DNA of 36,558 nucleotides from a virus (IMGVR_UViG_2778261416_000006:1-36558), one strand, 5' to 3'. Counted from the stretch's first letter, positions 1 through 36,151 are shown. The notes: generated by a model from the sequence alone, not told the origin. A program made the numbers and translations.

Positions 1-273
1 TCATAAGAGATGTATCAATCTTGCGAGACTCTCACGGATTTTATCGCCGTCATAAATAGCAATCTCTTCAATATTGTTACCAATGAAAGTTTCAGCTGCC
101 TGGATGGCTATCAGTTCAGACATACCAACGTTATCAGCCAGCTGGCGTGCTGCAATGACCTTGCTTTCAAGAGTTAGGATGACCGGCCTGTAGCCTGCGC
201 GTTTGATTTTGATACAGTGTGAAATCAATTTCTCCATAGGTGCGGTGGTCACTTGGAATGCAGTCGTACCCAC
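1..273 (-). CDS. hypothetical small protein (90 aa), function unknown
   Basis: Complete ORF in track with stop codon at 1-3 (tca on + strand). No recognisable motif. Upstream region 274-1100 has no ORF of 60 aa or more, so this may be the surviving end of a decayed gene. Confidence 0.3.
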   Translation of the reverse strand: MGTTAFQVTTAPMEKLISHCIKIKRAGYRPVILTLESKVIAARQLADNVGMSELIAIQAAETFIGNNIEEIAIYDGDKIRESLARLIHLL

Positions 274-1112
274 CTGAAAGGCCCCTTCACGGTCAATGTG
301 TGGATCATTAGCATTGGCCCTGCGACTACTGATTTTAACATCTAGGGAAACGTAGCTGATGTTTGGCTTCGATAAGATTCTGTAGCACCGCCTCAGTGGG
401 GTTGTCAGAACATTCCGCTGCCGCCTTAAGAATATCGCTTACTAGAGATGAAACTGGTTGATTGTAATCCCGGTCGACCGTTACTCTATGTTTATCCGGA
501 TAATTTTGGCGTACACATTAAGTGAAGAAAACTTCAAAGTGATTTGAAACAGATGTTGTATTCACTGGCTCATTTACATTAACTTGAGTGTTGTTCAGCA
601 CATGTTGAAACGCAGCTGTAAGGAAGATGATACAGCCAAGATGTATCCTTCATTATGGGGATTGGCGCGATGACCACCACGGCTTAGCCCGATTGATTAT
701 TTGGAAATTGATTAGAATGCATAATCTGGGCTGAGCTCACTTAAAGTCTCTAATGTTTGACTTGGAGATTTGGGGGGCAGTGGCTTTCAGTTTTGTTAAC
801 TCTAACATCTGGTTTACGTTCCTTTTGGAACAAGAAGCAGAGGTCTGCTAAGTAATGGTTGTACTGCTTGTGATAGGTATGACTGCATGTTCAGCGAGCA
901 AGAATGGCTTAAAAGTTCTGTTACTGAGCACCCCATGAAGTTAGAACGATGTCATAACGTGCACGTAACCGTTGAACTGTTCTCTTACAGATAATCTCTA
1001 CATAGCTATTATTGCTTAGGCGGTAGCTATGTAGATGGTTTTTGTAATATTATATTAAAAGTTCATACAGCGACTATAGCATCATTGCGAAAAATATCAG
1101 GAGGTGAGTTTA

Positions 1113-2567
1113 ATGTTACGAAAAAGCAAACTTACAGAGATATATAAAAGGTTTGGTTTTACTGAAGAAAATACAGGTAACGAAAGTATTGCTGTATATT
1201 CTATTAAAACAGGGCACTACCATAACGCGGACATACTTCCACTAAATAATGAGGTTAATGTAAATCAAACCTTTGAAGAATATAGGCAGTTAGGTTATGC
1301 ATGTCAAATTAAAAAATATCAGTCTTATGAAGAAGCACATAAGGAATTATTTAATGGCTTCTTTAGCGTCGATTCAACTAAAGAAAGGTTGATTAAAGAT
1401 TATAATACTTTCACAGATTCAATTGTAAAAATTCACTCACCTACTGCAACTTATTCCTACATAAATTCAAAATATTACTTAAATGGTGTTATTGGCGAAG
1501 CTAATGTTGTTACGGAAATATTAGAGAGAATACAACATAGGCGTCCAATTCTGTTTTTGATTGAGGCTGCAGCCGGTTTTGGAAAGACTTGCACGGCGTA
1601 TGAATTATTGAGGGAGATTATAGTTAACAATATAGGGAAAATACCATTATTTTCAGAACTATCAAGGAATAGGCAAGCAAAAATATTCAGGTATGTACTA
1701 TTAGATGAAATTGATAGAAGTTTTCCTTTGTTAAGCTCAGCCTTAGTAAGGAATGAAATAAGAGCAGGAAATGTACCAGTTATACTTGACGGGTTTGATG
1801 AACTATTGCATGAAAGTACAAACGGAATTGAAAATAATTATGAAAAAACAGAGCCAATGCTGGAAATAATAAGTGAGCTTCTAACTGATAGTGCAAAAGT
1901 GGTTTTGACAACTCGAAGAACAGCTATATTTGACGGAGATGAATTCCATCAGTGGATAGCATCACATCAAGAAGATTTTGATGTGATAAGAATAAGAATT
2001 CATGAACCACAAATTGAAGACTGGCTTCCAGGTCAACGTTTAGATGAAATTTCATCGACAGGATTTCCTCTTAACAAATTATCAAACCCTGTACTGCTAT
2101 CATTTCTAAGATGCATCGACGACACCGACTTTAATAAAGTTATAAGCGACCCAACAACTATAGTGAGGAAGTATTTTGATTCAATGCTTGAGCGAGAAAG
2201 AAAAAGACAAGATTTATTAATGTCTATTGAAGATCAATATACTATACTAAAAATAATAGCTGACGACATGGTCGAGGGTAACTACACATCTGAGTCTAGA
2301 GAGTATATATCGTTAGTCATAACTGAAAAGAATCAACAACTCTTGGAGGCTACAAGAAAGCTTTATACTGTAGATGAAAGACCAACTACTGACGAATTAG
2401 TTAATAAATTAGCATCGCATGCTCTATTAGATCGGTCAGGCTCAGAAAACCAAGGTATTGGATTTGTTAATGAATTTGTTCTTGGTAATTTTGTTTCTGA
2501 AAATATTATTAATGATAAGTCAAATGAATGGATTGGTGATAAACGTTTTATAGAACCAGCAGTGTAA
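1113..2567 (+). CDS. NACHT-type STAND P-loop NTPase
   Basis: Walker A-like AAAGFGKT, Walker B VPVILDGFDELL (hhhhDGxDE) about 70 aa later, then VVLTTRR matching the NACHT hhhT[ST]R motif. AGGAGG at 1098-1103 precedes ATG 1113; track start 1104 is a GTG. AT-rich codon usage. Confidence 0.65.
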   Translation: MLRKSKLTEIYKRFGFTEENTGNESIAVYSIKTGHYHNADILPLNNEVNVNQTFEEYRQLGYACQIKKYQSYEEAHKELFNGFFSVDSTKERLIKDYNTFTDSIVKIHSPTATYSYINSKYYLNGVIGEANVVTEILERIQHRRPILFLIEAAAGFGKTCTAYELLREIIVNNIGKIPLFSELSRNRQAKIFRYVLLDEIDRSFPLLSSALVRNEIRAGNVPVILDGFDELLHESTNGIENNYEKTEPMLEIISELLTDSAKVVLTTRRTAIFDGDEFHQWIASHQEDFDVIRIRIHEPQIEDWLPGQRLDEISSTGFPLNKLSNPVLLSFLRCIDDTDFNKVISDPTTIVRKYFDSMLERERKRQDLLMSIEDQYTILKIIADDMVEGNYTSESREYISLVITEKNQQLLEATRKLYTVDERPTTDELVNKLASHALLDRSGSENQGIGFVNEFVLGNFVSENIINDKSNEWIGDKRFIEPAV

Positions 2568-2573
2568 TCTTAT

Positions 2574-3218
2574 ATGCCGAGGATCGATGATGAAAAAGAA
2601 TTACTTTGGCATAGCTTAGAGTTTGCTTTATATTTTATGTCAGGTAATGATAAAATCCTTTATAGTCATTTGCTTATAGGAAAAGTTCCATTAGATTTAA
2701 AAAATGATAGTGTTGAGCAATTGTCTATATCAAAACTTTCTTTAGGCGATATAAATATAATACATGATACTATCTTTGTTGATTGTTCGTTTTTTAGCAG
2801 CATATTTACCTGTGGTAATTATAAAAACGTTACATTCGTGAACTGTTCTTTTATAGATTGTAGTTTTAACGAATTAAGTGGTAGGGAAGATATTTATTTT
2901 TTGGGATGTGAATGTGACAATGATGCTATTAATAAAAAATCTGTCGAGATAAACAGTGAAAATGATCACGATATTACAGATTGTGATATTTACATCTTAG
3001 AGAAGTTCTGTCCCAGAGGGAGTGTTAGCTATCATAAGCATCGGCCTATAAAAGGCTTATGTTCTAACAACAATCAATTTCAGTTAAGTGAAATACTCCA
3101 TTCTTTAGATAAATTGAGGAAAGACGGTCTTTTACTTACGCCAGACAAGCGTTCGTTCCTTGAACTTAACATGGCAAGAATATCAGAGATTAAAGCAATT
3201 CTTGGGAGGAATTTCTGA
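2574..3218 (+). CDS. pentapeptide-repeat-like protein
   Basis: Seven consecutive 5-residue units with an aromatic at the same position (FVDCS FFSSI FTCGN YKNVT FVNCS FIDCS FNELS). Starts 7 nt after upstream stop; its stop overlaps the next start (TGATG at 3216-3220). Confidence 0.55.
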   Translation: MPRIDDEKELLWHSLEFALYFMSGNDKILYSHLLIGKVPLDLKNDSVEQLSISKLSLGDINIIHDTIFVDCSFFSSIFTCGNYKNVTFVNCSFIDCSFNELSGREDIYFLGCECDNDAINKKSVEINSENDHDITDCDIYILEKFCPRGSVSYHKHRPIKGLCSNNNQFQLSEILHSLDKLRKDGLLLTPDKRSFLELNMARISEIKAILGRNF

Positions 3219-4123
3219 TGTATAACGGGAATGAATTGCGAATTATTCAAAGTTTGCAAAAAGATATAGAAGATGAACTTAATCGTATTGGATTACTTTA
3301 TCGTTTTTTTTCGAGGACAAAATCAGAAAGCTCAATAATTAAGAAATATGAAAAAGAGCCTAATAAATACTCAGAGGATGGTAAAAAAATTCAAGACTTA
3401 TTTGGGGTTAGGATAATATTATATTTTCCTGATGATTTATTTATTGCTCAAAAAACACTGGAGAAATTATTCGAAATTGAATCTAAAACCGTAGACGAAA
3501 CCACGGCTAATCTCTTTGCGGCAACTCGATGCAATTACGTCTTTAAGTTACCAGAAGTATTATCAAATGATAGTGTCTTATTAAAGAAATATTCTTATAT
3601 TGATACTACTTTTGAAGTCCAATTTAGAACTATTTTATCTGAAGGATGGCATGAAGTTGAGCATGATCTACGCTATAAGTGCAAAGAGGATTGGGTTGAG
3701 CATAATGACCTTAGTCGCGCGCTGAATGGAATTTACGCCTCTTTGGAAACATCTGATTGGGGAATAATGAAGTTATTTGAGGATTTAGCATATAGAAATT
3801 ATAAGTCAAGCGCATGGTCCGCTATGCTAAGAAATAAATTAAGATTGAGAATGGACGATAAGCTTGATGAAAAGATAATTTCAATAATTAATGAGAAAGA
3901 GCTTGGTAAAAAGTTTTATAGAATTGACAGAGATCGTTTGTTATCGTTAATGTTAGATTATAATATTGATATACCAATTAATCTTAATAATATAATTTAC
4001 CTTTGTAATTATTTTTTCATAAAATCTACGGAGCTTCAGGATATAGCCCCTGCTTTAATAATGAAAAAGCTTACAGATGCTGATGAAAAATTCAATAAAA
4101 ATACTATTTTAGCATCTAAATAA
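3218..4123 (+). CDS. RelA/SpoT-like nucleotidyltransferase (synthetase fold), possible toxSAS-type effector
   Basis: N-terminal motifs typical of RelA/SpoT synthetase domain: SRTKSESSIIKKYEK (RxKxxxSxxxK), DLFGVRIILYFPDD (DxxGxRii), EVQFRTILSEGWHEVEHDLRYK (ExQxRT...W...H...YK). C-terminal 130 aa unassigned. Translationally coupled to upstream gene. Confidence 0.65.
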   Translation: MYNGNELRIIQSLQKDIEDELNRIGLLYRFFSRTKSESSIIKKYEKEPNKYSEDGKKIQDLFGVRIILYFPDDLFIAQKTLEKLFEIESKTVDETTANLFAATRCNYVFKLPEVLSNDSVLLKKYSYIDTTFEVQFRTILSEGWHEVEHDLRYKCKEDWVEHNDLSRALNGIYASLETSDWGIMKLFEDLAYRNYKSSAWSAMLRNKLRLRMDDKLDEKIISIINEKELGKKFYRIDRDRLLSLMLDYNIDIPINLNNIIYLCNYFFIKSTELQDIAPALIMKKLTDADEKFNKNTILASK

Positions 4124-4140
4124 TAACTATCTCCGGCTAT

Positions 4141-4170
4141 TAAGTAGGCCTTGTATTTTAGGCCTACTTA
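4141..4170. terminator. perfect 10-bp inverted repeat (taagtaggcc / ggcctactta) with 10-nt loop, putative operon terminator
   Basis: Read directly; lies 18 nt after the stop of the RelA/SpoT-like gene. No clean T-tract follows, so it could be a protein-binding palindrome instead. Confidence 0.35.
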
Positions 4171-5175
4171 AAAAGTTTCATTATGTGAAGTGATGATGAT
4201 AGCAAATCTGATATCTTTATGGTTGGATGCGAGAAAATATTTTTATCCCGACACAACAACTGGTAATGATAGAAAATTTAAACCCAAAAATGCTACAGTA
4301 GCCTCAGCTCACAAACGGAGTATAAAGTGGCGGTTACTCTTTAGTGGGAATACTGTAGATAGTTGATAAACTGGGCTGGATTTTCTTTTCTAACCGAAGG
4401 GAAGAAAAGCAAGGGGAACCCAAAGAAACAAGCGCAGCGGCTTCGTAGGGTTAGCCCTTGCTTCTTTTATAATTGGCATTATTCATTCAAGAACAATAGG
4501 ATCTTCGCTTGTACAAGCGAAGCTATAATAAAAAATCAATTAATTATTTTAAAAGTATTAAGCAAGAGCCTATTGACATTCGTAAAATAAAAGTTATTTT
4601 TAATGTATGCCATAAATAAAAAGTTTTATGTCATATGTATCCTGCACTATGTGCAGTTAATGTGCCACTTGTCCCATATATGGGAATATTGGAAAGGTTA
4701 CTTTGTTTTGAAGTAGCCTTTCGTCCTTCAATATTCACGATTACTTATTGCTATTACCAAGTCCAGTCGAATCGAAGAACATCTTTTATCTGAAACGACT
4801 CCTAATACCAGGTTGAAGCCACAATATCTCTCGCATAAGTAGACCAAAGAAAAATTATGATATTAACTATGTGATTTTTTTTAGTGTTAAGTTGAATAAT
4901 TATATACTGGAGAGTTTTCTGTACACTACCAATTGCTGGTTCATCTGTTCTGCCGCTGATGTTTCTGACTAATCTCCCGGTGACACAGAACTGTCCCTCT
5001 CTACCAGCCTTTATTCGACTCAATGTCCGGCTGCTGATACGCAGTTATCCCTTCGTATCAATGACTGACTCTTAAACGCAATGCTTTGGTTGCTGGCGTA
5101 TCTGACAGCTTCTTCGGCGTGAAGGTCGTTGTGTAAGTATACTTCTTGGTTTATTTAGGCTATATAAAACCATGA

Positions 5176-6072
5176 CTATGACTGGCTGTTTTCAGTAAGA
5201 GTCTTATCATCCAAAGAATTTATTCTAGAAATTCTTTTTAACTCATTAAGATAATCAACCTCGTTTTCTAAGAACCAATGAAGAACTTTAGAGTTGCCAA
5301 GTAATTTATTAATATATGACTGGATTATAACGAATTTCAACATATCTGAACCATACTCGGTTTGAAGTTTTTTCGTTTCTTCCGAAGTTGTTGCCATTTC
5401 TTGTTCCAGACGAAGTATGGTTTTTTTTATGTCCTTTTTATAGGGAGTGTTTTTCCCTTTATTTACTATCATCGATGACGGTGTTGCATCCAAGATGCTC
5501 ATTGCAAATTTTTTACTATAATTATCAAAATTAATCATTGTACCGACTGCTTCAATTTGACGAATTGGCTTCATTTTCCTCAAAACGTCAAATGTAGCCT
5601 TAGGTATAGGTTTATCAGAAAGTTTCGCAATTACACTTGGATCTATGCCGTTCATCACATTAGCTTTATCTTTTATGGCATCAACAGATATGCCCAAAGC
5701 AGCACTAAGTTTTTCAATTGATACTTTTGCCAGAGACTTAATTATCATTCTATGTTCTTCAACTACATTTATATGATTCACTTGTTTGTTAGGAGTGAAA
5801 GCATCATCTATGCTCGAAAGTATACATGGAGCTTTTTCTATATCTAAGTCTTTTAAAGCCTCAACCCTTAAATGGCCATCAAGTATCTTAGTGACATCTT
5901 TATCTTTGTCATAGAATACTATTATTGGTTCAATAATACCCAAGCTTTCGATAGAGGTAACTATTTGATGATATTTATGGCTTCGCTTTACGTTTTCTAA
6001 TAATTCCTTAGATGGAATTAACTTATTAGTTTCCAGGTAAATAAAATTTTTGCCAAAACGTATCTGAATCAT
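5176..6072 (-). CDS. ParB/sulfiredoxin-fold protein
   Basis: N-terminal ParB-like region with ILDGHLRVEAL (GxxRxxA-type box). ATG at 6072-6070; 4-nt overlap with upstream gene. AT-rich. Confidence 0.55.
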   Translation of the reverse strand: MIQIRFGKNFIYLETNKLIPSKELLENVKRSHKYHQIVTSIESLGIIEPIIVFYDKDKDVTKILDGHLRVEALKDLDIEKAPCILSSIDDAFTPNKQVNHINVVEEHRMIIKSLAKVSIEKLSAALGISVDAIKDKANVMNGIDPSVIAKLSDKPIPKATFDVLRKMKPIRQIEAVGTMINFDNYSKKFAMSILDATPSSMIVNKGKNTPYKKDIKKTILRLEQEMATTSEETKKLQTEYGSDMLKFVIIQSYINKLLGNSKVLHWFLENEVDYLNELKRISRINSLDDKTLTENSQS

Positions 6073-6965
6073 TTTGATACCTCTTTGTTTACTGGGTTTA
6101 ATATCTGAGATGGTAGTTCTGAAAGATTCTCTTGTTCAAGTATATTTTGAAAGCTTTTATTCATCATTATGATGTTAAAAATCTCATTTATTATTAGTAG
6201 ATTGGTTTTTATAAATTTCGAGTTGTTATAAACAGATTTATGTTCAGCGATACTATTTTCATAAAGCTCAATCAACTCCTCTGCAGTCATCCTTTTTGAT
6301 GGTTTGTGATAATAAAATCCGGCTGCTTTTGCACCTTTATTCCCAACTGTTCTTTGATTTAGAATGTATTTTATCTTTATAATGTCCCGACTTTTTATTA
6401 ATTTTTTATCATATGCTTCGGTAAGAATATCTTGTGCTTCCTCAGTTTCACATCTTGCAAATTGCACTGCGAGATACAGAGGCAAATTACCCCGTTCGAC
6501 TGCTGAGAGAAGTTTATGCTCTCCCTTATCAAGAAGCATATTAATACTGCTCACCCAGTTCGATGAATATCCAGTAATCTCACTTATTTCGGAGTCTGAA
6601 AGTCCTCTGATTTTCATGTCTTTAATCACCTGTAATAACTCATTAGAACGTGGTCTTCTCCTTGCAATGTTTTCAACTAAACTCATAACGTAAGCATCTT
6701 CTTCTGATACATCTCTTATAATTGCTGGAATAATAGTTTCACCTAATGCAACAAGAGCCTCTATTCTCCCTTGACCACAAATTAAAGCATATTTGAAATC
6801 GTCTTCATCAATAGCTCTTACGCTTATAGGCTTGCTTAATCCTCTTTTTTTTATGCTTTCCTTTATTTCTTCATGCACTACCTTATTTCTTGTTCGTGGG
6901 TTAAGAAATTTTATTTTTGCAATCTCAATTTGAATTATTGGGAATTCATTTTTTTCAGGCAGCAT
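6069..6965 (-). CDS. ParB-like protein with HTH
   Basis: ParB box-like CGQGRIEAL and LVENIARRRPR, followed by helix-turn-helix-like GLSDSEISEITGYSSNWVSSI. ATG at 6965-6963; overlaps recombinase gene end. Confidence 0.6.
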   Translation of the reverse strand: MLPEKNEFPIIQIEIAKIKFLNPRTRNKVVHEEIKESIKKRGLSKPISVRAIDEDDFKYALICGQGRIEALVALGETIIPAIIRDVSEEDAYVMSLVENIARRRPRSNELLQVIKDMKIRGLSDSEISEITGYSSNWVSSINMLLDKGEHKLLSAVERGNLPLYLAVQFARCETEEAQDILTEAYDKKLIKSRDIIKIKYILNQRTVGNKGAKAAGFYYHKPSKRMTAEELIELYENSIAEHKSVYNNSKFIKTNLLIINEIFNIIMMNKSFQNILEQENLSELPSQILNPVNKEVSK

Positions 6966-8511
6966 ATAGTTCCCTCACTTTCATGCGAGTAATAATTTGT
7001 AGAAATTTATCAAGATTATCAAATCTATAGAGATCTAACCGAATGTTGTTTGTTTCCATCATACACATTTTACTATATTCGTTTTCAATCTTTGGTATGA
7101 TATAAAAATCAAGAGGTGAAATATTTTGTGAATTCATTCGTATAACAATTGTTATGTCTGCTTTCTGTGAGTTATCAAACCGGACTTTCCATCTAAGTTT
7201 ACCTGATTTCATATGTATGCATTTAGTAACAAGGACGGAAATTAAAAACTCATCATTGATGTAAAGCATTGGGTAATATTTATACTCGTCTATATGACAG
7301 TTACTTTTTAATATTTCGCCCTTAAAATCCTCAATTATCTCTGAGTAAAATGATCTTAGTGCTTCATTTATTTGGAGATAGCTGTAATCATGTTCTGGCT
7401 TATAACCAATCAAAGTATATGCTCTTAAAAGACCACCAAATCGGGTTCTATAAACAGAAGATGAAGGGCCTGTATCATCTTCATCAATGATAAAGCCTGA
7501 TAGTTTTCCATTAGATTCTAATTTTTCTTTTAGCTTTTCTAATAGATCTTCATTAGTCAAATGAATGGATCGGAGCTGAATTATTTCTTGAGCTTTATTA
7601 TATTTTTTCTTTGAAATAATTGGTTTATATGCCTTGTCACATCTAATCCATTCATGTTTGGGGTTTTTTACAAGCTTACTTTTTAGTTTAGATGAGGTTT
7701 TGTTATATATGTTGTTTCCAATATATTTTTCATTTGTCAAAATTTGATGTATTTTTGCACGAGTCCATGATGTTCCATTTTCTGCAGGTATGCTCTGTTC
7801 ATTTAATCTCTCAGCAATAATGAATTCTGGGACGTTACTATCTATAAAGAGATCATAGATTCTATTTACAATTTTTATTTCATTTTTTGGTCCCGGAATT
7901 AATATTACCCTATCTGTTTGAATACTCTTTCTTTTGCGGAAATTCAATATTTCTTTAGCTATGCCATTTTCGTCTACTAAAAGACGTCTCAGCCCATAAC
8001 CAGCCATACCGCCTTGATGATAACCAAGCTTTATTAAATTTACTTGCCCTATAAATACCTTTTCAGATAGATTCCTGCTGTGATATGCAGCACTTGATCT
8101 TTTTATATTCAGTATAACAGAGGACTCTAAAGGGAAATCTTTAGTGGGTATAGGTTCGGAACAATATATAAGATCTACACCATTTCTTTCAAATAGAAAG
8201 GAATAATATGCAGCTTCATCACTATTTTGAAAACGACCAAAACGGCTCACATCATAAAATAATACAGCCTGTATATCTATTTTCTTTTGTTCTACATCGC
8301 TAAGTAACTGCTGCAAAGAATGCCTGCCTACGATACTGACTCCGCTCTTACCTGCATCATCGTAGGTATAAGCGATTTCCATATTGTTCTTTTCAGCATA
8401 ATCTTTGATATATTCAGACTGATTATGTAAAGAATATTGCTGATGGTCGGTAGACATCCTCAAGTACTGTGCGACCCTAACTCTATGATTTTTTTCATTT
8501 CCGCTAGCCAT
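6955..8511 (-). CDS. large serine recombinase
   Basis: N-terminal resolvase/invertase catalytic motifs: VAQYLRMSTDHQ (catalytic Ser), YDDAGKSG, LFYDVSRFGR. Length 518 aa fits the large serine recombinase class. Track start 8517 is TTG; ATG at 8511 is preceded by GAGG. Confidence 0.75.
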   Translation of the reverse strand: MASGNEKNHRVRVAQYLRMSTDHQQYSLHNQSEYIKDYAEKNNMEIAYTYDDAGKSGVSIVGRHSLQQLLSDVEQKKIDIQAVLFYDVSRFGRFQNSDEAAYYSFLFERNGVDLIYCSEPIPTKDFPLESSVILNIKRSSAAYHSRNLSEKVFIGQVNLIKLGYHQGGMAGYGLRRLLVDENGIAKEILNFRKRKSIQTDRVILIPGPKNEIKIVNRIYDLFIDSNVPEFIIAERLNEQSIPAENGTSWTRAKIHQILTNEKYIGNNIYNKTSSKLKSKLVKNPKHEWIRCDKAYKPIISKKKYNKAQEIIQLRSIHLTNEDLLEKLKEKLESNGKLSGFIIDEDDTGPSSSVYRTRFGGLLRAYTLIGYKPEHDYSYLQINEALRSFYSEIIEDFKGEILKSNCHIDEYKYYPMLYINDEFLISVLVTKCIHMKSGKLRWKVRFDNSQKADITIVIRMNSQNISPLDFYIIPKIENEYSKMCMMETNNIRLDLYRFDNLDKFLQIITRMKVRELYAA

Positions 8512-8793
8512 GCACAAAACCTCATGGATGATTCAATACAATGTAGAGGATAAAATTGATCAAATTTTAACCGAATTCAACTGTTTTATCATTGATTAGA
8601 GCGAATTTGGTAGTTCTTCGAGGTGTATGATAATCGAGAAGAGATGTGAATTATTTAGCTGATATGACCGACAGCTTTCGTTATGTGGCCTCAAGGTACC
8701 CATTTGTAAATGGCTATGCTTAGTCCACATAGGTTAATGGTGTGATCATTAATTCTTCAAATAAATCAAGATAGTTAACCCATCATGGAAGAG

Positions 8794-10023
8794 TTATGCG
8801 GCAATAACTTTGTATTTTTGAGACGAAACATAGTCACTCCACCATTGCATGAGAACCACACGTTCTGTGAGATACTCTGCACGATTGTAGGCTGCAATTA
8901 TTTCATCTTTTTTCGAGTGGGCAAGGGCGGCTTCTAAGACATCAGTTCTAAACTTGCCACACTCCTCAGCCGCCGTTCTAGCGATTGATCGCATACCATG
9001 AGCTACAAGCTCACCTCCGAAGCCCATACGGATTATAGCCGCATTAGCTGTTTGTTCATGCATGTGATTGAGTGGAGCTTTGATACTGGGAAAAACCCAC
9101 TCTCTATGCCCGCTGATGGCTTTCATTGAATCCAAGACTCGCAAAGATTCTTTGCTCAGTGGAACTTTGTGAGGCTTCTTCATTTTCATAAACTCCGCCG
9201 GGATGTTCCACATGCTGGTTTCTATATCAATATCTGACCATCTTGTGCGAACAGCTTCACCAGGGCGAACCCATGTGAGAAGTTGCCACTCAATCAGTAG
9301 CCTTGTTTCTAAACGGATAGAAGCATTGTTTAGAGCAACCAGGAAGCGGGGGAGTTCGGAAGGGGGTAATGCTGGCATATTCTGTTTTTTTGGCTTGCTG
9401 AACCGTTGCCCCAGGTTGTCAGCCGGATTGAATTCTATGAGTTCTTCTGTTGCTGCATAGCGGAAAATTTCATTCAGGCGGGATATGACGCGGCGAAGTG
9501 TTTCAAGGACACCTCGTTTTTCTATGGGGTCTAAATGCTGTTTAAGCATTTTAGGGCGAATCTCCTTAATGGGGGTATCACCCAACGTTGGAAAGATATT
9601 TCTCTCTAGGCTTCGCCAGATGTCGTTAGCATGATCCTGGGAGATGCCTGACGTTTTGACTTTCTCATCAAGCCACTTCTTGGCTACTGCTTGAAATGTA
9701 TGTTCCGTTGCATCCTTAAGGGCATTGGCTTTGTGGGTGTTATGAACTTGTGGGTCTATACCATTTGCAAGCAACGACAAGTACTCATCACGTAAAGCTC
9801 GTGCCTTCGCAAGTGTAAGGTGAGGATAGGTTCCTAAGCTCACCTTAGTTCGCTTTTTGGTCACAGGCACTGCATATCTGAAATACCAATTTTTCTTTCC
9901 TCCCTTCGCTAAGGGGGCGATTCGCAGGAGCAAACCATCGCCGTCAAAAAGGTTAACCTCTTTCTCGGCAGGTTTGGTGCTTTTGATTTCAGTGTCAGTG
10001 AGCTTCTTAGCGATTTTTGCCAT
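8794..10023 (-). CDS. P4-type tyrosine integrase (IntA/CP4-57-like)
   Basis: N-terminus MAKIAKKLTDTEIK and overall pattern resemble E. coli IntA as I recall it. C-terminal HGMRSIARTAA (HxxR) and AYNRAEYLTERVVLMQWW. Start placed at ATG 10023 rather than track start 10167. Confidence 0.8.
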   Translation of the reverse strand: MAKIAKKLTDTEIKSTKPAEKEVNLFDGDGLLLRIAPLAKGGKKNWYFRYAVPVTKKRTKVSLGTYPHLTLAKARALRDEYLSLLANGIDPQVHNTHKANALKDATEHTFQAVAKKWLDEKVKTSGISQDHANDIWRSLERNIFPTLGDTPIKEIRPKMLKQHLDPIEKRGVLETLRRVISRLNEIFRYAATEELIEFNPADNLGQRFSKPKKQNMPALPPSELPRFLVALNNASIRLETRLLIEWQLLTWVRPGEAVRTRWSDIDIETSMWNIPAEFMKMKKPHKVPLSKESLRVLDSMKAISGHREWVFPSIKAPLNHMHEQTANAAIIRMGFGGELVAHGMRSIARTAAEECGKFRTDVLEAALAHSKKDEIIAAYNRAEYLTERVVLMQWWSDYVSSQKYKVIAA

Positions 10024-10189
10024 GTTTGGGACCCTCATGTTTTGGACCCTTTGTGTTGGGTCCCAAAAAGGGTGCCATAACGAGTAGATTCTAGCAATTC
10101 TCGGTAGACTACTATAGACGTAAAAAAGCCCGCAAGGCTGGTTCCATGCGGGCTTGATAGACTTCACTGAACTTCAATATATCAAAAAT

Positions 10190-10218
10190 TGGTGGAGCTG
10201 GCGGGAGTTGAACCCGCG
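10190..10218 (-). repeat. ssrA: 29-nt copy of the 3' end of the tmRNA gene ssrA (attachment-site core)
   Basis: Minus strand reads CGCGGGTTCAACTCCCGCCAGCTCCACCA, matching the T-arm, 3' acceptor strand and CCA end of E. coli ssrA as recalled. Sequence beyond (10219 onward) is not ssrA. Lies about 165 bp from the integrase start. Confidence 0.7.
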
Positions 10219-10289
10219 TTCTTTTTACTTTATCTTTATGTTTTATAAGAGTTTTACAGGGCGCTGATACGATGCGTAGCTTTAACGGA

Positions 10290-12649: not shown

Positions 12650-12674
12650 ATGAGAGCAAATAAATTGCTCTCAT
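12650..12674. terminator. bidirectional hairpin terminator between convergent genes
   Basis: 9-bp stem atgagagca / tgctctcat with 7-nt loop, flanked by A-run upstream and T-rich downstream; overlaps integrase stop codon. Confidence 0.5.
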
Positions 12675-13840
12675 TTATACATGATATCATTTATGGTATT
12701 TTCGTTATCGTACTCTTTTAAATATCTTCCATAATGCCTAAATAGCATTTCTGGTCCTTTATGTCCCATTTGTCCAGCAAGCCAAAATAGGTTCGCCCCT
12801 TGACTGATATGGCGAGTAGCGAATGTGTGTCTCGTTTGATATGGATTACGGTATCTGATTCCTGCTTTTCTCAATATTGGCACCCATGCTTTTTTCCTAA
12901 TTGCATCAGCACTTGCCCAGGGTTTATTGGTCTTTGGATCTTCAAAGACAGTAGCATTCTTTATGAATGTAAATGGCTTCTGGTTTATCAACGCCAACAT
13001 TGCTTCTTCAGTCAGTTCAACTTTACGGGTACCGGCTTTTGTCTTTGTTCCTTTGATAACTCCGACAACACTTGCGCTCTGAACATGGGCTGTTTTTCCA
13101 ACAAAGTCGATATCATGCCATCGTAGGGCACATAATTCAGAACTACGCAGGCCTGTATGTATGGCGAACCGGAACAGATTTTCCCATTGTTTGTTTCCGG
13201 CTGCTGCTAGTAATGCATCAACTTCTGCTGGTGATAGCGGATCAACTAAGTAGCTGCTTTCTGCTTCTGACTTATCACTTTGGTAGCGCGAAGCTGTTAC
13301 TAACGATACGGGGTTAATTTGAAGTACCCCATCGGTCACGGCTTCATCAAGTGCTGACCGCAGGAAAGATAACTGGTTGCGAATGGTTTTTAAGGTCGTT
13401 TTCTGGCTTTGAATCCACGCTTTCAGGGTTGCTGGTGTTAATTCACTTGCAGGGCAAATGTGAAGTGAGGCTAACGCACTACGGCATTTTTTATAACCAC
13501 CGATCGTGGATGGTGAAAGTTTCCTCGTTTCGCAGATTTCAAGATATTCGTCTAGGTACATTTTTACCGTTTTGCCAGCGGCAGCATTACCAAAAATTTT
13601 CAAACGAGCAGAACGGGGAAAATATTCTGCATAAATGAATGTTCCCCTTTCGATCTTATTATGGATTTCGCCGAGTGTACGCTCGGCGTATTTAATGTTC
13701 TTTGGTGTTACTTCCAGATTGGAAAGCGGCTCACGACATCTAACTCCTTTGTAGGTGAAAGTTATATTGATCGTTTCTCCTTGGCGGTGTTTCCTGATTG
13801 TTACGCCGCGCGGTAGTTTGAGCAGTTTTGTCTGGCCCAT
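12671..13840 (-). CDS. lambda-type tyrosine integrase
   Basis: C-terminal catalytic region RHTFATRHISQG (HxxR) and MLFRHYGRYL (Tyr); N-terminal arm-binding-like region. ATG at 13840. Confidence 0.85.
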   Translation of the reverse strand: MGQTKLLKLPRGVTIRKHRQGETINITFTYKGVRCREPLSNLEVTPKNIKYAERTLGEIHNKIERGTFIYAEYFPRSARLKIFGNAAAGKTVKMYLDEYLEICETRKLSPSTIGGYKKCRSALASLHICPASELTPATLKAWIQSQKTTLKTIRNQLSFLRSALDEAVTDGVLQINPVSLVTASRYQSDKSEAESSYLVDPLSPAEVDALLAAAGNKQWENLFRFAIHTGLRSSELCALRWHDIDFVGKTAHVQSASVVGVIKGTKTKAGTRKVELTEEAMLALINQKPFTFIKNATVFEDPKTNKPWASADAIRKKAWVPILRKAGIRYRNPYQTRHTFATRHISQGANLFWLAGQMGHKGPEMLFRHYGRYLKEYDNENTINDIMYK

Positions 13841-18796: not shown

Positions 18797-19629
18797 ACAG
18801 TTTAACGGCAAATAACCGTTTGTCGCAACAGCTGGTGGTCAGCGTCGCTGAACACCTGTTGTTACGGCATGAATGCAGATTACCAAATCACCTGGCTGTA
18901 AGTAACCACAGAGAACTTTATCTGACTGTGGGGGGCGAGTTGTGCAGGAACTTAACCGCTGGTTTCGTGACGGAAGAGGGCTTTATGTCCATGTTATTCG
19001 TTGGGAGCCAGAAACACAGCGCGTTATCTATCTTCGCAAAGACTACCCGCATGAGTGCTTTAGTCCTTTGTGGAAATTCAGGCGTGATTTTGTTGAGTGT
19101 GAAGGACCACCAGCACATTGATTCTGCCATTCCGGGACGTTACACTGTTCAGGCACCTTATAAAGCGGGTGCCGGGATTGGCGTCCTGGAATTGCATACG
19201 GCGACAATTGGCGCGTTAGCGTCTTTTTTGTTGCTACAACTCAGCTATACCCAAATTATGGTGGGCTGGGTGGGGGCACCGAAAGGTGCGCCGGTTTCCG
19301 TATGCGCCGGTTACGCCAACCCTGCTCAGTTCACCACCAGCGAAATTGGCGTTTCCGGTGGTGGAAGTTATCCATTGCATACGGAGGCTGCCATCATGGC
19401 TACTGTCCCAGCCCTCTCTCGTCTGAATGATGACGACTTACATAAACTCAGTTATGTAACAACTGCACTACGTGCTCTGCGCAAGGTAACTCTTTCGGAT
19501 CCGCAGGCGCATCAGGTTCTGGTAGAAACCCTTCTTAACTTGCAGGCTGAACGTATTCGTCTGGCGGATAAGGCTAATTTTCATATTCACCGTCTCCTGA
19601 ATATCAGCGGAGGGCATCGTCATGCTTAA
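18793..19629 (+). CDS. hypothetical phage protein
   Basis: 278-aa ORF with ATG overlapping upstream stop (ATGA) and GGAG upstream; composition is unusual (Leu/Ser/Ala/His-rich), so coding status is uncertain. Confidence 0.35.
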   Translation: MNSLTANNRLSQQLVVSVAEHLLLRHECRLPNHLAVSNHRELYLTVGGELCRNLTAGFVTEEGFMSMLFVGSQKHSALSIFAKTTRMSALVLCGNSGVILLSVKDHQHIDSAIPGRYTVQAPYKAGAGIGVLELHTATIGALASFLLLQLSYTQIMVGWVGAPKGAPVSVCAGYANPAQFTTSEIGVSGGGSYPLHTEAAIMATVPALSRLNDDDLHKLSYVTTALRALRKVTLSDPQAHQVLVETLLNLQAERIRLADKANFHIHRLLNISGGHRHA

Positions 19630-34303: not shown

Positions 34304-34666
34304 ATGCTTATTGGCTATGTACGTGTGTCAACAAATGACCAGAACACAGATCTACAACGTAATGCGCTGAACTGTGCAGGATGCGAGCTGATTTTTGAAG
34401 ACAAGATAAGCGGTACAAAGTCCGAAAGGCCGGGACTGAAAAAACTGCTCAGGACATTATCGGCAGGTGATACGCTGGTGGTCTGGAAACTGGATCGACT
34501 GAGGCGCAGTATGCGGCATCTTGTCGTGCTGGTGGAGGAACTGCGCGAAAGAGGCATCAACTTTTGCAATCTGACGGATTCAATTGATACACAGTATCTT
34601 GTTAACACCAACACATGGCTGCAGGAGGGATATTATCGGTACCCGATTTCAGGATACAGCGCCTGA
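34304..34666 (+). pseudogene. pin: truncated DNA invertase (Pin/Hin/Gin family)
   Basis: MLIGYVRVSTNDQNTDLQRNALN ... VVWKLDRLRRSMRHLVVLVEELRERGINF matches the catalytic domain of Pin; similarity ends near residue 96 (about 34592) and the C-terminal HTH is absent. GGGAGA upstream of ATG. Confidence 0.7.
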
Positions 34667-34725
34667 TTAGACTAAAGAGGGGCTATATTGTAGAGTTTGC
34701 TAAAGTTTTTTATAGGGTTAAGCAA

Positions 34726-35796
34726 ATGACAGTCAGGAACTACACTAATTTAAATTTAGATCGGACAACTATTGAGGCTACGTCTAGGGCATTTATTGAA
34801 AATAAAAACTATTCCGTCCATTCAATTGGACCAATGCCTGGTGCAAGAGCAGGACTTCGGGTTGTGTTTGCTAAACCAGGAGAAGCTTTGGCAACTGTTA
34901 ACATTTTCTATAATAACGGAGGGACGTCTACAGTCCAGTATCAAACAGGAGCTAATCATAATCTTGGAAAAGAGTTGGCTGATGATCTCTATGAAACCAT
35001 CAATCCTGCAGAATTTGAACAGGTAAATATGGTGTTACAAGGGTTCGTTGAAGCGAACGTTTTATCTGTACTTCAGCTCTCAGCAGAGCAGCCACATATA
35101 CAATTTTACGAATACTTACGGAACACTCATACAACGGTGTGGAAAATTCATTCGCCAGAATTTCAGGATGAGTTGACAGTTAGTCTGCATCACAGAAATG
35201 GAACACTACAAATACAAGGGCGTCCATTGTCATGTTATAGAGTGTTTATATTCAACTTGTCAGAGCTACTCGATTTACAAGGACTGGAAAAAGTTCTCAT
35301 TCGTCAGGATGATGGCAAAGCGTATATAGTTCAGAAAGAAGTTGCTCGCTCACATCTAGAGTGTGAAATGGGGGATGCGTACCCACTATTGCATAAGAAT
35401 GTTGAAAAATTGCTCGTTTCTGGGCTGTGTGTTAAACTCGCCGCCCCCGATTTACCCGATTACTGTATGTTGTTGTATCCTGAATTACGTTCAATTGAGG
35501 GAGTACTTAAATCAACAATGTACCGATATGGCATGCCAATCACGCAGGATGGTTTCGGGCCTTATTTTGATAAAATTGGGAGTGAATTTATTCTGAAACA
35601 ACAATTTGGATGCAATTTATCGTCAGCTAAGGTTAAGACCATTAATGATGCCTATACTTTCTTTAACAGAGAACGTCATGGCCTGTTTCATATGGAGATA
35701 GTTGTCGACACAAGCCGTATGGTTTCTGACATGGCACGACTGATGACTAAGGCCAGACAGGCATGGGGAATTATTAAGGATTTGTATATTGTTTGA
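34726..35796 (+). CDS. rnlA: RnlA-like toxin (endoribonuclease of the RnlA-RnlB system)
   Basis: 357 aa from ATG 34726; N-terminus MTVRNYTNLNLD and internal segments such as EKLLVSGLCVKLAAPDLPDYCMLLYPELR and WGIIKDLYIV match E. coli RnlA as recalled. AT-rich. Confidence 0.65.
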   Translation: MTVRNYTNLNLDRTTIEATSRAFIENKNYSVHSIGPMPGARAGLRVVFAKPGEALATVNIFYNNGGTSTVQYQTGANHNLGKELADDLYETINPAEFEQVNMVLQGFVEANVLSVLQLSAEQPHIQFYEYLRNTHTTVWKIHSPEFQDELTVSLHHRNGTLQIQGRPLSCYRVFIFNLSELLDLQGLEKVLIRQDDGKAYIVQKEVARSHLECEMGDAYPLLHKNVEKLLVSGLCVKLAAPDLPDYCMLLYPELRSIEGVLKSTMYRYGMPITQDGFGPYFDKIGSEFILKQQFGCNLSSAKVKTINDAYTFFNRERHGLFHMEIVVDTSRMVSDMARLMTKARQAWGIIKDLYIV

Positions 35797-36151
35797 AATA
35801 ACAGGTGTTAACGTCTCAGGGGCTCTCATTGCCGTCGTTATGGCGACTGGCTACGAGAACCCCTTGACTTCAGTTCACGAAATCGAGAAGAGGCTTTCTG
35901 TTATACTGGGCAATTCACAGGCTACAGGTGAGGTTTTGTTTGACCTTTTGTGTTCTAATGGTCCAGAGTGGAATCGCTTTGTTTCGCTGGAAATAAGGTG
36001 TGGCAGTATTTTGCTGGATACTGCCAAAATTGTGGATGAGCAAGAAATTCCAGCGCAGATCTTGAGACATCAGAGAGATGTATTACGTAACCACCCTGAG
36101 TACGTAGAAGACTCTGTGTTAACACCAGATGATGTTCTTTGTATTCTCTAG
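35789..36151 (+). CDS. rnlB: RnlB-like antitoxin
   Basis: FEITGVNVSGAL ... LFDLLCSNGPEWNRF ... LRNHPEY resembles RnlB as recalled; start appears to be TTG overlapping the rnlA stop. Confidence 0.6.
   Translation: MFEITGVNVSGALIAVVMATGYENPLTSVHEIEKRLSVILGNSQATGEVLFDLLCSNGPEWNRFVSLEIRCGSILLDTAKIVDEQEIPAQILRHQRDVLRNHPEYVEDSVLTPDDVLCIL

Follow-up and report, generated by a model that had tools for sequence, protein, structure and literature searches.

Positions 1113 to 4123 of IMGVR_UViG_2778261416_000006:1-36558 (the window, meaning the whole 36,558-nt stretch of DNA that was analysed) carry a NACHT gene and an overlapping RelA/SpoT-fold gene. The window sequence is E. coli chromosome. The two genes constitute a mobile two-gene cassette. 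They are best explained, at a probability of roughly 0.6, as an NLR-like abortive-infection cassette with a pyrophosphokinase output, of which the window holds a copy disrupted by a nonsense mutation. Apparently new is the conserved pairing of a NACHT protein with a trans-encoded RelA/SpoT effector, for which no defence-database model or paper was found; the NACHT architecture and the RefSeq domain names were already known. An initial annotation, made from the sequence alone, had read the locus as a split STAND system with sensor, switch and effector on three proteins. This architecture was not supported, as sensor and switch are one polypeptide cut by the nonsense mutation. Coordinates refer to the whole window and residue numbers (aa) to the 701-aa NACHT protein or the 301-aa effector.

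A NACHT gene with a premature stop codon and an overlapping RelA/SpoT-fold gene

The following features were assigned to the cassette.

984..1012, + strand: candidate sigma-70 promoter CTTACA-17-TATTAT, about 100 nt 5' of the NACHT start, from a consensus scan only
1099..1107, + strand: strong Shine-Dalgarno (SD) sequence of the NACHT gene, AGGAGGTGA, with the core AGGAGG at 1099-1104, read from the sequence
1113..3218, + strand: NACHT (bacterial NLR-like) gene, 701 codons if intact, here stopped at codon 485
1128..1481, + strand: NA-iREase2 domain (NACHT-associated inactive restriction-endonuclease fold), aa 6-123, Pfam PF22723
1488..2537, + strand: NACHT NTPase with helical and winged-helix subdomains, aa ~126-475, from motifs, an AlphaFold2 (AF2) model and Foldseek
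1575-1589, + strand: Walker A
1788-1802, + strand: Walker B (DGFDE)
1908-1919, + strand: TTRR motif
2565..2567, + strand: premature stop TAA, ancestrally CAA for Gln485, which makes the apparent boundary of 'gene 1' and 'gene 2'
2574..3218, + strand: 'gene 2' open reading frame (ORF), the last 214 codons of the NACHT gene (aa 488-701) behind an incidental in-frame ATG
2688..2957, + strand: predicted pentapeptide-type right-handed beta-helix, aa ~526-615, putative sensor surface, from sub-threshold Pfam matches and the AF2 model
2958..3215, + strand: small C-terminal alpha/beta domain, aa 616-701, from the AF2 model (helices 623-632, 658-670 and 687-696; strands 643-645 and 682-685)
3204..3209, + strand: SD of the effector, GGGAGG, 8 nt upstream of its start codon and within the terminal part of the NACHT gene, read from the sequence
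3218..4123, + strand: gene of the trans-encoded effector, a 301-aa RelA/SpoT-fold pyrophosphokinase, with a start codon that overlaps the stop codon of the NACHT gene
3311..3688, + strand: synthetase catalytic core, aa 32-157, with R33/K35/K43, D60/G63/R65, the R104-C105-N106 loop, E133/Q135/R137 and H145/H149/D150/K154
3695..4120, + strand: all-helical basic C-terminal domain of the effector, aa 160-301, conserved and rich in invariant Arg/Lys

ORF calling returned 1104/1113-2567, 2574-3218 and 3218-4123 on the + strand. The G+C content (GC) was 0.30-0.35 over 1-8.5 kb and 0.45-0.58 in the rest of the window. The locus had initially been described as three tightly coupled AT-rich genes. The ORFs, the AT-richness, the 7-nt gap and the 1-nt overlap were recovered; the number of genes was not. 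'Gene 1' (1113-2567) and 'gene 2' (2574-3218) share one frame, and the TAA at 2565-2567 is their sole separator. The two ORFs are parts of one NACHT gene. As their frame is the same, what looked like a 7-nt gap consists of a premature stop codon with an incidental in-frame ATG behind it.

In E. coli FDAARGOS_1248 (NZ_CP069542), the equivalent of 1113-3218 was annotated as a single 701-aa 'NACHT domain-containing protein' (WP_000944877.1) and the downstream gene as a 301-aa 'RelA/SpoT domain-containing protein'. The window differed from this genome at 2 of 3201 bases, C>T at 1867 and C>T at 2565. The change at 2565 converted CAA (Gln485) to TAA. The change at 1867 (ACA>ATA, Thr252Ile) affected T252, an invariant column of the NACHT family alignment in the motif EPMLETI, and may have damaged the NACHT protein of the window copy further. 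The listed homologues were all about 700 aa long, spanned the site and covered 100% of the 701-aa protein. Their hosts were Citrobacter, Morganellaceae, Pectobacterium, Vibrio, Photobacterium, Pseudomonas, Moritella, Idiomarina and others. The stop falls in RFIEPAVQSYxPR, among the best-conserved blocks of the alignment, and inside a helix predicted at 477-487 in the AF2 model, not at a domain boundary. The Met that starts 'gene 2' is I, L, V or M in homologues, and no SD precedes ATG 2574.

A 71-nt stretch over the stop region was present in 60 complete E. coli genomes. None of them had the exact window sequence and 58 differed from it by one base. The exact 484-aa product is known from another contig (WP_244589021.1), so the Gln485-to-TAA allele is probably real rather than a sequencing error. 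At least 22 contigs with a 214-aa ORF were considered as carriers of the same TAA allele and rejected, since their upstream lesions differ. The nonsense mutation is most likely private to the window lineage, with the system of the window strain most likely inactivated.

The NACHT gene starts at ATG 1113 and not at GTG 1104, because the SD AGGAGGTGA at 1099-1107 serves ATG 1113 and the GTG sits within it. The number of promoter-scan matches in the region was close to the shuffle expectation, which gives the candidate promoter at 984..1012 a weak basis. NACHT stop and effector start share TGATG at 3216-3220, with an overlap of 1 nt. Scans for tRNA, tmRNA and Rfam families gave no match within the cassette. 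A conserved third gene for an antitoxin or hydrolase was not found downstream; the downstream genes differed in each neighbourhood examined, and the ORFs at 4190-4793 of the window are short and were not examined.

The NACHT protein begins with a domain that the initial annotation had missed. NA-iREase2 (PF22723) was matched with 117 bits against a cutoff of 27 (E 8e-34) and was found in 59 of 59 family members. The acid of its (D/E)xK motif is replaced by Q, K, T or R in the aligned column C-[Q/K/T/R]-x-[K/R], and this loss fits the label 'inactive'. The NTPase motifs reported initially were all present. Walker A is AAAGFGKT at aa 152-159, with GFGKT at 155-159, and G-[FY]-G-K-T was found in 52 of 52 intact homologues. 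Walker B is ILDGFDEL at aa 224-231. Its DGFDE (226-230), likewise found in 52 of 52 homologues, fits D[GAS]hDE, the NACHT-specific Walker B signature (Kibby et al., bioRxiv 10.1101/2022.07.19.500537). TTRR lies at aa 266-269, and T[TS]R was conserved in 52 of 52 distant homologues. In profile searches, the RelA/SpoT model passed its threshold, and the NACHT and pentapeptide models stayed below theirs in the window proteins. Pfam NACHT (PF05729) reached 19.1 bits in the window protein against a gathering threshold of 26.7. At family level, 58 of 59 members matched it at E<=0.01, the best at 1.4e-6.

The structural model was that of a Citrobacter orthologue, 89% identical to the E. coli NACHT protein, with a predicted local distance difference test score (pLDDT) of 83.8. 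It comprised, in order, an N-terminal alpha/beta domain, a P-loop NTPase with helical and winged-helix subdomains, a helical linker, a beta-helix and a C-terminal alpha/beta domain. Top Foldseek matches were NLRP2, NLRP14, NAIP5, NLRC4 and Avs4 (E 5e-9 to 1e-6). The initial assignment as a NACHT-type STAND NTPase is supported by this prediction, which points to a NACHT-clade protein with an NLR-like fold of nucleotide-binding, helical and winged-helix domains (NBD-HD-WHD).

The C-terminal part holds the putative sensor. 'Gene 1' had been noted to have only a short C-terminal region and no obvious repeat sensor; it is short, and truncation at codon 485 explains why. The description of 'gene 2' as a short pentapeptide-repeat protein agrees with its predicted fold and not with its status as a separate gene. 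Pentapeptide_4 was matched below threshold in the window protein (20.7 bits against a cutoff of 38, E 4e-4). Family-level matches at E<=0.01 were obtained for Pentapeptide_4 in 33 of 59 members, LD_SV2 in 22, Pentapeptide_3 in 16 and PF00805 in 4, and Beta_helix matched an 89%-identical homologue at 1e-4. The AF2 model showed short stacked strands at 533-597 with a pLDDT of about 90 and only about 4-5 coils. The C-terminal domain carries the conserved motif LEKFWPKGxxxxxKHRP; a Pfam search with the isolated domain gave no match. Mean pairwise identity was 24-26% in linker, beta-helix and C-terminal domain and 44% in the NTPase. The beta-helix, with 24%, was the most variable part. Such variability is expected of a diversifying ligand-sensing region.

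The effector matched PF04607 with 56.8 bits against a cutoff of 27. The RelA/SpoT synthetase motifs noticed initially were confirmed as RxKxxxSxxxK, DLFGVR and EVQFRT. All ATP-donor and catalytic motifs of such synthetases (RxKxxxSxxxK, DxxGxR, ExQxRT and HxxYK) are present. R33, K35, D60, R65, N106, E133, Q135, R137, H145, H149, D150 and K154 were found in 52 of 52 distant homologues at a mean identity of about 41%. Judged by these residues, NACHT ATPase and effector both look active. The canonical G-loop GYRSLH of RelP and RelQ is remodelled to A-T-R-C-N-Y-V-F, without the conserved GY. N106 of this acceptor loop is invariant, position 107 is Y, F or L and F109 is at least 90% conserved. Acceptor loops of the GYRSLH type carry a conserved base-stacking Tyr (PMC11782079). 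The best sequence and structure matches, over effector residues ~25-195, were RelP and RelQ. The family profile reached RelQ and RelP at 2e-9 and no structure of a toxic small alarmone synthetase (toxSAS), and the effector structure also matched CapRel and Tas1. The C-terminal domain, with the invariant residues R205, K207, R209, R211, K231, R235 and R238, had no match in Pfam (searched as the isolated domain) or the PDB and lay outside all structural matches.

Pairing, distribution and decay of the cassette

The effector alignment was used for a scan of one genome per species (GTDB). It gave 187 relatives, of which the best 80 loci were analysed. These were screened with hidden Markov models built from both family alignments, with the following result.

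52 loci: intact single NACHT-family ORF directly 5' of the effector, on the same strand, abutting or overlapping its start
3 loci: NACHT gene present, cut by the contig end
4 loci: NACHT gene split at scattered positions (about residues 79, 105, 300 and 642)
8 loci: upstream sequence too short to judge
13 loci: no NACHT-family gene

NACHT and effector genes were paired in 59 of 72 informative loci (82%). None of the 59 paired loci was split near residue 485, so the three-gene layout is not a feature of the family. Paired loci occurred in Gamma-, Beta-, Delta- and Epsilonproteobacteria, Bacteroidota, Firmicutes, Cyanobacteria and Myxococcales. Cassettes of 46-60% identity in Pseudomonas phytophila, Vibrio campbellii and Idiomarina had unrelated flanks; in each, the NACHT gene lay directly upstream of the effector gene and either overlapped it or ended 2 nt before it. 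The pairwise divergence of the NACHT and effector proteins was correlated (r=0.89).

Within E. coli, the distribution was sporadic. The cassette (1000-4200, at least 99% identity) was present in 76 of 5426 complete genomes (1.4%) and was chromosomal in all of them. Relatives were found on plasmids of Yersinia, Pantoea and Klebsiella, and essentially none in phage genomes. The 135 nearest flanking proteins of 40 loci included AbiEii/AbiEi, SIR2-like proteins, DNA methylase, integrase and conjugation proteins among many housekeeping genes. The plasmid copy of Yersinia hibernica (pCFS1934, locus L093) has genes for an RNA-directed DNA polymerase and an N-6 DNA methylase as flanks (2342-3562 and 7184-7972), a defence-island-like context.

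Effector homologues without a NACHT gene fell into several types. Blautia spp. (seven loci, L070-L074, L078 and L080) had a homologue of about 329 aa with about 40% identity and a short N-terminal extension. ORFs of about 700 aa upstream in these loci were considered as divergent STAND proteins and rejected, as they are P-type ATPases. The Blautia branch suggests a non-immune or self-regulated role. In Clostridiales/Oscillospiraceae, the effector homologue was preceded, with a 3-nt gap, by an ORF of 165-210 aa without a Pfam match. This layout resembles that of toxin-antitoxin (TA) pairs, and the small ORF could be an alternative partner or an antitoxin. Its positions in the four loci were as follows.

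L065: 5404-5898
L066: 5287-5916
L068: 2950-3447
L069: 5390-5902

One Prevotella homologue was preceded by a Cache-HAMP-SpoIIE-HATPase sensor protein.

The protein cluster of the E. coli NACHT protein contained many truncated forms, and the gene has been broken independently many times in E. coli. Lesions were compared on a background of at least 99.9% identity; the counts, which take no account of gene length, are too small for a claim that NACHT is lost preferentially.

Window: Gln485 to stop
L090: nonsense mutation, codon 416
L089: 1-nt deletion, codon 347
L091: 1-nt deletion, codon 463
L092: 1-nt deletion, codon 478
L088: IS1 insertion
RM10410: IS2 and ISVsa5 insertions
P0243 form (141 contigs): N-terminal ~218 residues replaced

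A cassette copy on a Yersinia plasmid had a 5'-truncated NACHT gene beside IS1. The 214-aa fragment was called as a separate protein 3' of several different lesions in other E. coli. Over the stop region, 22 of 60 complete-genome copies were annotated as 'hypothetical protein' and not as NACHT, and 16 of the 76 complete genomes with the cassette lacked this stretch. The effector ORF was intact in the six aligned loci (L088-L092 and the window); a truncated 126-aa effector form was found elsewhere, on 155 contigs. We cautiously infer that loss of NACHT function is tolerated next to an intact effector. Since NACHT-null alleles sit beside an intact effector ORF, an antitoxin role of the NACHT protein is unlikely. 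It is probably an activator, or the effector is self-inhibited.

Proposed function, related systems and alternative explanations

By analogy with characterised NLR/STAND systems and toxSAS enzymes (PMC11782079, PMC9712102), the cassette is a probable anti-phage system that travels across many bacterial phyla. The variable beta-helix and the C-terminal domain would detect a phage- or infection-derived cue, and the NACHT module would thereby be freed to oligomerise in an NTP-dependent manner. Clustering of the N-terminal iREase domains would then create a platform for output, where the RelA/SpoT enzyme would be recruited or de-repressed. This enzyme would transfer pyrophosphate from ATP, and its acceptor could be a purine nucleotide, which would yield a toxic alarmone, or the 3' end of an RNA, the kind of target used by toxSAS enzymes that act on tRNA. 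Growth would halt and the infection would be aborted. A nucleotide acceptor is somewhat favoured by the similarity to RelP and RelQ, and a different acceptor, possibly RNA, by the remodelled loop and the basic C-terminal domain. It is an unlikely but conceivable extension that the cassette defines a new class of NLR, in which a dead nuclease-fold adaptor switches on a separate RelA/SpoT enzyme with an acceptor other than GDP/GTP, such as an RNA end or an unusual nucleotide.

The closest described proteins are bacterial NACHT (bNACHT) proteins of clade 15. The combination of NA-iREase2, NACHT and Pentapeptide is already listed for this clade in Table S1 of Kibby et al. (bioRxiv 10.1101/2022.07.19.500537), with entries including V. 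cholerae WP_142737953.1 and Paenibacillus daejeonensis WP_020618620.1. A V. cholerae homologue (P0168, about 60% identity) and a P. daejeonensis locus (L026) belong to the family studied here. Domain order, D[GAS]hDE, the predicted NLR-like fold and the sporadic, mobile occurrence of the gene are shared. According to the same study, several bacterial NACHT clades protect against phage, bNACHT genes are only rarely found in operons, which are poorly conserved, and most act alone. Alarmone synthetases are named there only as a class of fused NACHT effector domain. The tested clade-15 members, bNACHT09 (TIR), bNACHT34 and bNACHT69, were cloned as single genes (Kibby et al.). They have other N-termini and no RelA/SpoT partner. 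bNACHT69 and bNACHT34 were considered as tested orthologues and rejected, as their N-terminal sequences differ and the clones held single genes. The N-terminal domain of the cassette protein appears catalytically dead, and the presumed enzymatic output lies in a separate conserved downstream gene.

With the toxSAS enzymes FaRel, FaRel2, PhRel, CapRel and Tas1, the effector shares the synthetase fold, donor-site and catalytic motifs, bicistronic overlap and mobility. A similar role in abortive infection is plausible by this analogy. Unlike toxSAS, the cassette has no small antitoxin, small-alarmone-hydrolase (SAH) or fused pseudo-Zn-finger; the partner is a 700-aa STAND NTPase. The effector also differs from them in its remodelled G-loop, in its extra basic helical C-terminal domain and in tolerating loss of the partner. 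Compared with RelP/RelQ (SAS1/SAS2), it shows about 20% identity, no GYRSLH and an added C-terminal domain of about 140 aa, and its gene is strain-specific, island-borne and coupled to a NACHT gene. Like Avs4 (Foldseek 8dgf, E 2e-8), the NACHT protein combines a STAND NTPase with a putative sensor at its C-terminus and a putative output module at its N-terminus. It belongs to the NACHT clade and not to the Avs clades, and no PADLOC Avs model was matched. In Avs proteins, the effector is an active nuclease or another enzyme within the same polypeptide; the nuclease fold of the NACHT protein is inactive, and the enzyme of the cassette has a gene of its own. A non-catalytic N-terminal adaptor that activates a separate effector may be a concept shared with CARD-NLR/gasdermin systems and inflammasomes. 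The adaptor is an inactive REase fold rather than a Death fold or CARD, and the effector a predicted pyrophosphokinase rather than a protease or pore-former.

The initial statement that the combination is not a named system agreed with the database and literature searches. No system model of PADLOC-DB v2.0.0 was matched, and the NACHT halves gave zero matches. The accessions of both proteins were absent from searchable papers. A pairing of NACHT with RelA/SpoT was not described in the toxSAS census (PMC7229694), the Aravind-lab surveys (PMC7159879) or the 2026 STAND survey and its supplements.

Several observations weigh against an anti-phage cassette. The association of the flanking genes with defence and the mobilome is moderate and not decisive. 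An effector homologue occurs without a NACHT gene in 13 of 72 loci, and the Blautia homologues sit in conserved housekeeping synteny (P-type ATPase, CutC and pyridine-nucleotide oxidoreductase). Because of the NACHT-less loci in Blautia, Clostridiales and Prevotella, the effector family is modular and not an intrinsically NACHT-dependent toxin. In sequence and fold, the effector core is nearer to housekeeping (p)ppGpp synthetases than to validated toxSAS. Its acceptor substrate appears unpredictable because of the remodelled G-loop and the extra C-terminal domain. Docking through NA-iREase2, proposed here as the adaptor or effector-docking domain, is conjectural. The tolerance of NACHT loss could partly reflect polar loss of effector expression, though the effector gene has its own SD. 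In PADLOC, the effector had only a partial and weak match to the candidate system PDC-S33 (E 8e-5, aa 8-84). A targeted literature search found no phage-protection experiment on this NACHT subfamily.

Alternative explanations were weighed against these data. The most serious is a non-immune regulatory pair, in which the STAND protein responds to an endogenous or environmental signal by activating a dedicated (p)ppGpp/(p)ppApp-type synthetase for stress or growth control. It agrees with a core closest to the housekeeping enzymes RelP, RelQ and Rel, with the many housekeeping neighbourhoods and the orphan homologues in Blautia, and with the use of bacterial STAND proteins as signal-dependent regulators (PMC7159879). 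The sporadic, strain-specific occurrence in 1.4% of E. coli on islands and plasmids, the hypervariable sensor region and the frequent loss are more typical of conflict systems, and bNACHT09, bNACHT34 and bNACHT69 of the NA-iREase2-NACHT clade, with other N-termini, were studied as antiphage genes. This explanation was rated as possible but unlikely. The two genes might also act independently, the effector as a CapRel-like self-contained sensor-effector that is auto-inhibited by its own C-terminal domain and the NACHT gene as a single-gene defence like bNACHT01. The large conserved and possibly regulatory C-terminal domain would suit such an effector, as would the 13 loci without NACHT and the solitary action of most bNACHT genes (Kibby et al., bioRxiv 10.1101/2022.07.19.500537). 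Independence is nevertheless improbable in view of the pairing in 82% of loci across phyla, the start/stop overlap and the co-divergence (r=0.89). In addition, the NACHT protein has no active effector domain, its N-terminal domain being an inactive nuclease fold, and the C-terminal domain of the effector is all-helical and dissimilar to the pseudo-Zn-finger domain of CapRel.

A TA-like module, with a constitutively toxic RelA/SpoT enzyme of the toxSAS type and the NACHT protein as its antitoxin or immunity partner, was considered quite improbable. A conserved overlapping bicistronic layout is the signature that Jimmy et al. used for toxSAS TA pairs (PMC7229694), and CapRel and Tas1 are structural matches of the effector. 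However, many natural NACHT-null alleles keep an intact effector ORF, a state that should be lethal with NACHT as the antitoxin. No known toxSAS antitoxin resembles a STAND NTPase of 700 aa whose ATPase site is invariant, effector homologues stand alone in Blautia, and no pseudo-Zn-finger or SAH partner was found with Pfam. A genuine three-component split STAND, consisting of a 484-aa NTPase, a 214-aa pentapeptide protein restarted at ATG 2574 and the RelA/SpoT enzyme, is very improbable. It could draw on the in-frame ATG 7 nt past the stop and on the calling of the 214-aa ORF as a protein in several assemblies. This ORF also follows unrelated frameshifts and IS1 in other E. coli, which marks it as a by-product of gene decay. 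The stop differs by one base from the CAA of sequences that are 99.9% identical, and it interrupts a conserved helix. The Met of 'gene 2' is not conserved and no SD precedes 2574. Moreover, 0 of 59 loci are split there and the four split loci are broken at scattered positions.

Phage protection by the intact cassette, if it occurs, would add a pyrophosphokinase or alarmone-type output to the effectors of bacterial NLR-related proteins. The cassette would then also represent a bacterial NLR that acts through a trans-encoded rather than a fused enzyme, and would link STAND/NLR immunity with toxic RelA/SpoT homologues. The family is widespread: the scan gave 187 loci, and homologous proteins number in the thousands and come from at least five phyla, with gut Bacteroidota and Firmicutes among them. 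The invariant catalytic sites make it experimentally tractable. The split layout of the window is an artefact of one nonsense mutation; intact alleles are present, for example, in FDAARGOS_1248, NCTC9100 and MRE162.

The ssrA island and the remainder of the window

The initial annotation had placed the genes inside an integrase-bounded island, and an integrase-bearing island at the ssrA site was indeed found. Its features were as follows.

1..10219, no strand: low-GC integrative island at ssrA, the part with the cassette, collinear with NZ_CP069542 at 99.94%
1-273, - strand: C-terminal fragment of a DUF4928 gene, running off the window start (Pfam)
5176-6965, - strand: two tandem ParB/RepB-like genes, 298 aa each, stop/start overlapping (Pfam)
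6955-8517, - strand: large serine recombinase, 520 aa (Pfam)
8794-10167, - strand: tyrosine integrase (Pfam)

Collinearity with NZ_CP069542 ended about 30 nt into the 3' end of ssrA, at an att repeat. An intact tmRNA gene was absent from the window in ARAGORN and Rfam searches. In E. coli, the ssrA island also carries a relaxase. In NZ_CP069542, the DUF4928 gene beside the cassette is likewise broken and annotated as a pseudogene, a sign of general decay in the island. The ParB/RepB pair and the serine recombinase (5176-8517, - strand), located between cassette and integrase, form a partition-like module that is unusual for a chromosomal island.

A second, prophage-like mobile element follows the island in tandem at 10190-36558 and has its own tyrosine integrase at 12671-13840 (- strand). 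Rfam placed the Hfq-binding small RNA isrK at 19153-19229 and the C4 antisense RNA at 19254-19341 (+ strand) inside this element. The pairing of isrK and C4 is typical of P1/P7-type phage immunity regions. A full-length gene for the RnlA (RNase LS) toxin with all four Pfam domains was present at 34615-35796 (+ strand). It is overlapped by a 120-aa ORF at 35789-36151 (+ strand) in the expected position of the RnlB antitoxin, and the two would form a known anti-phage TA pair.

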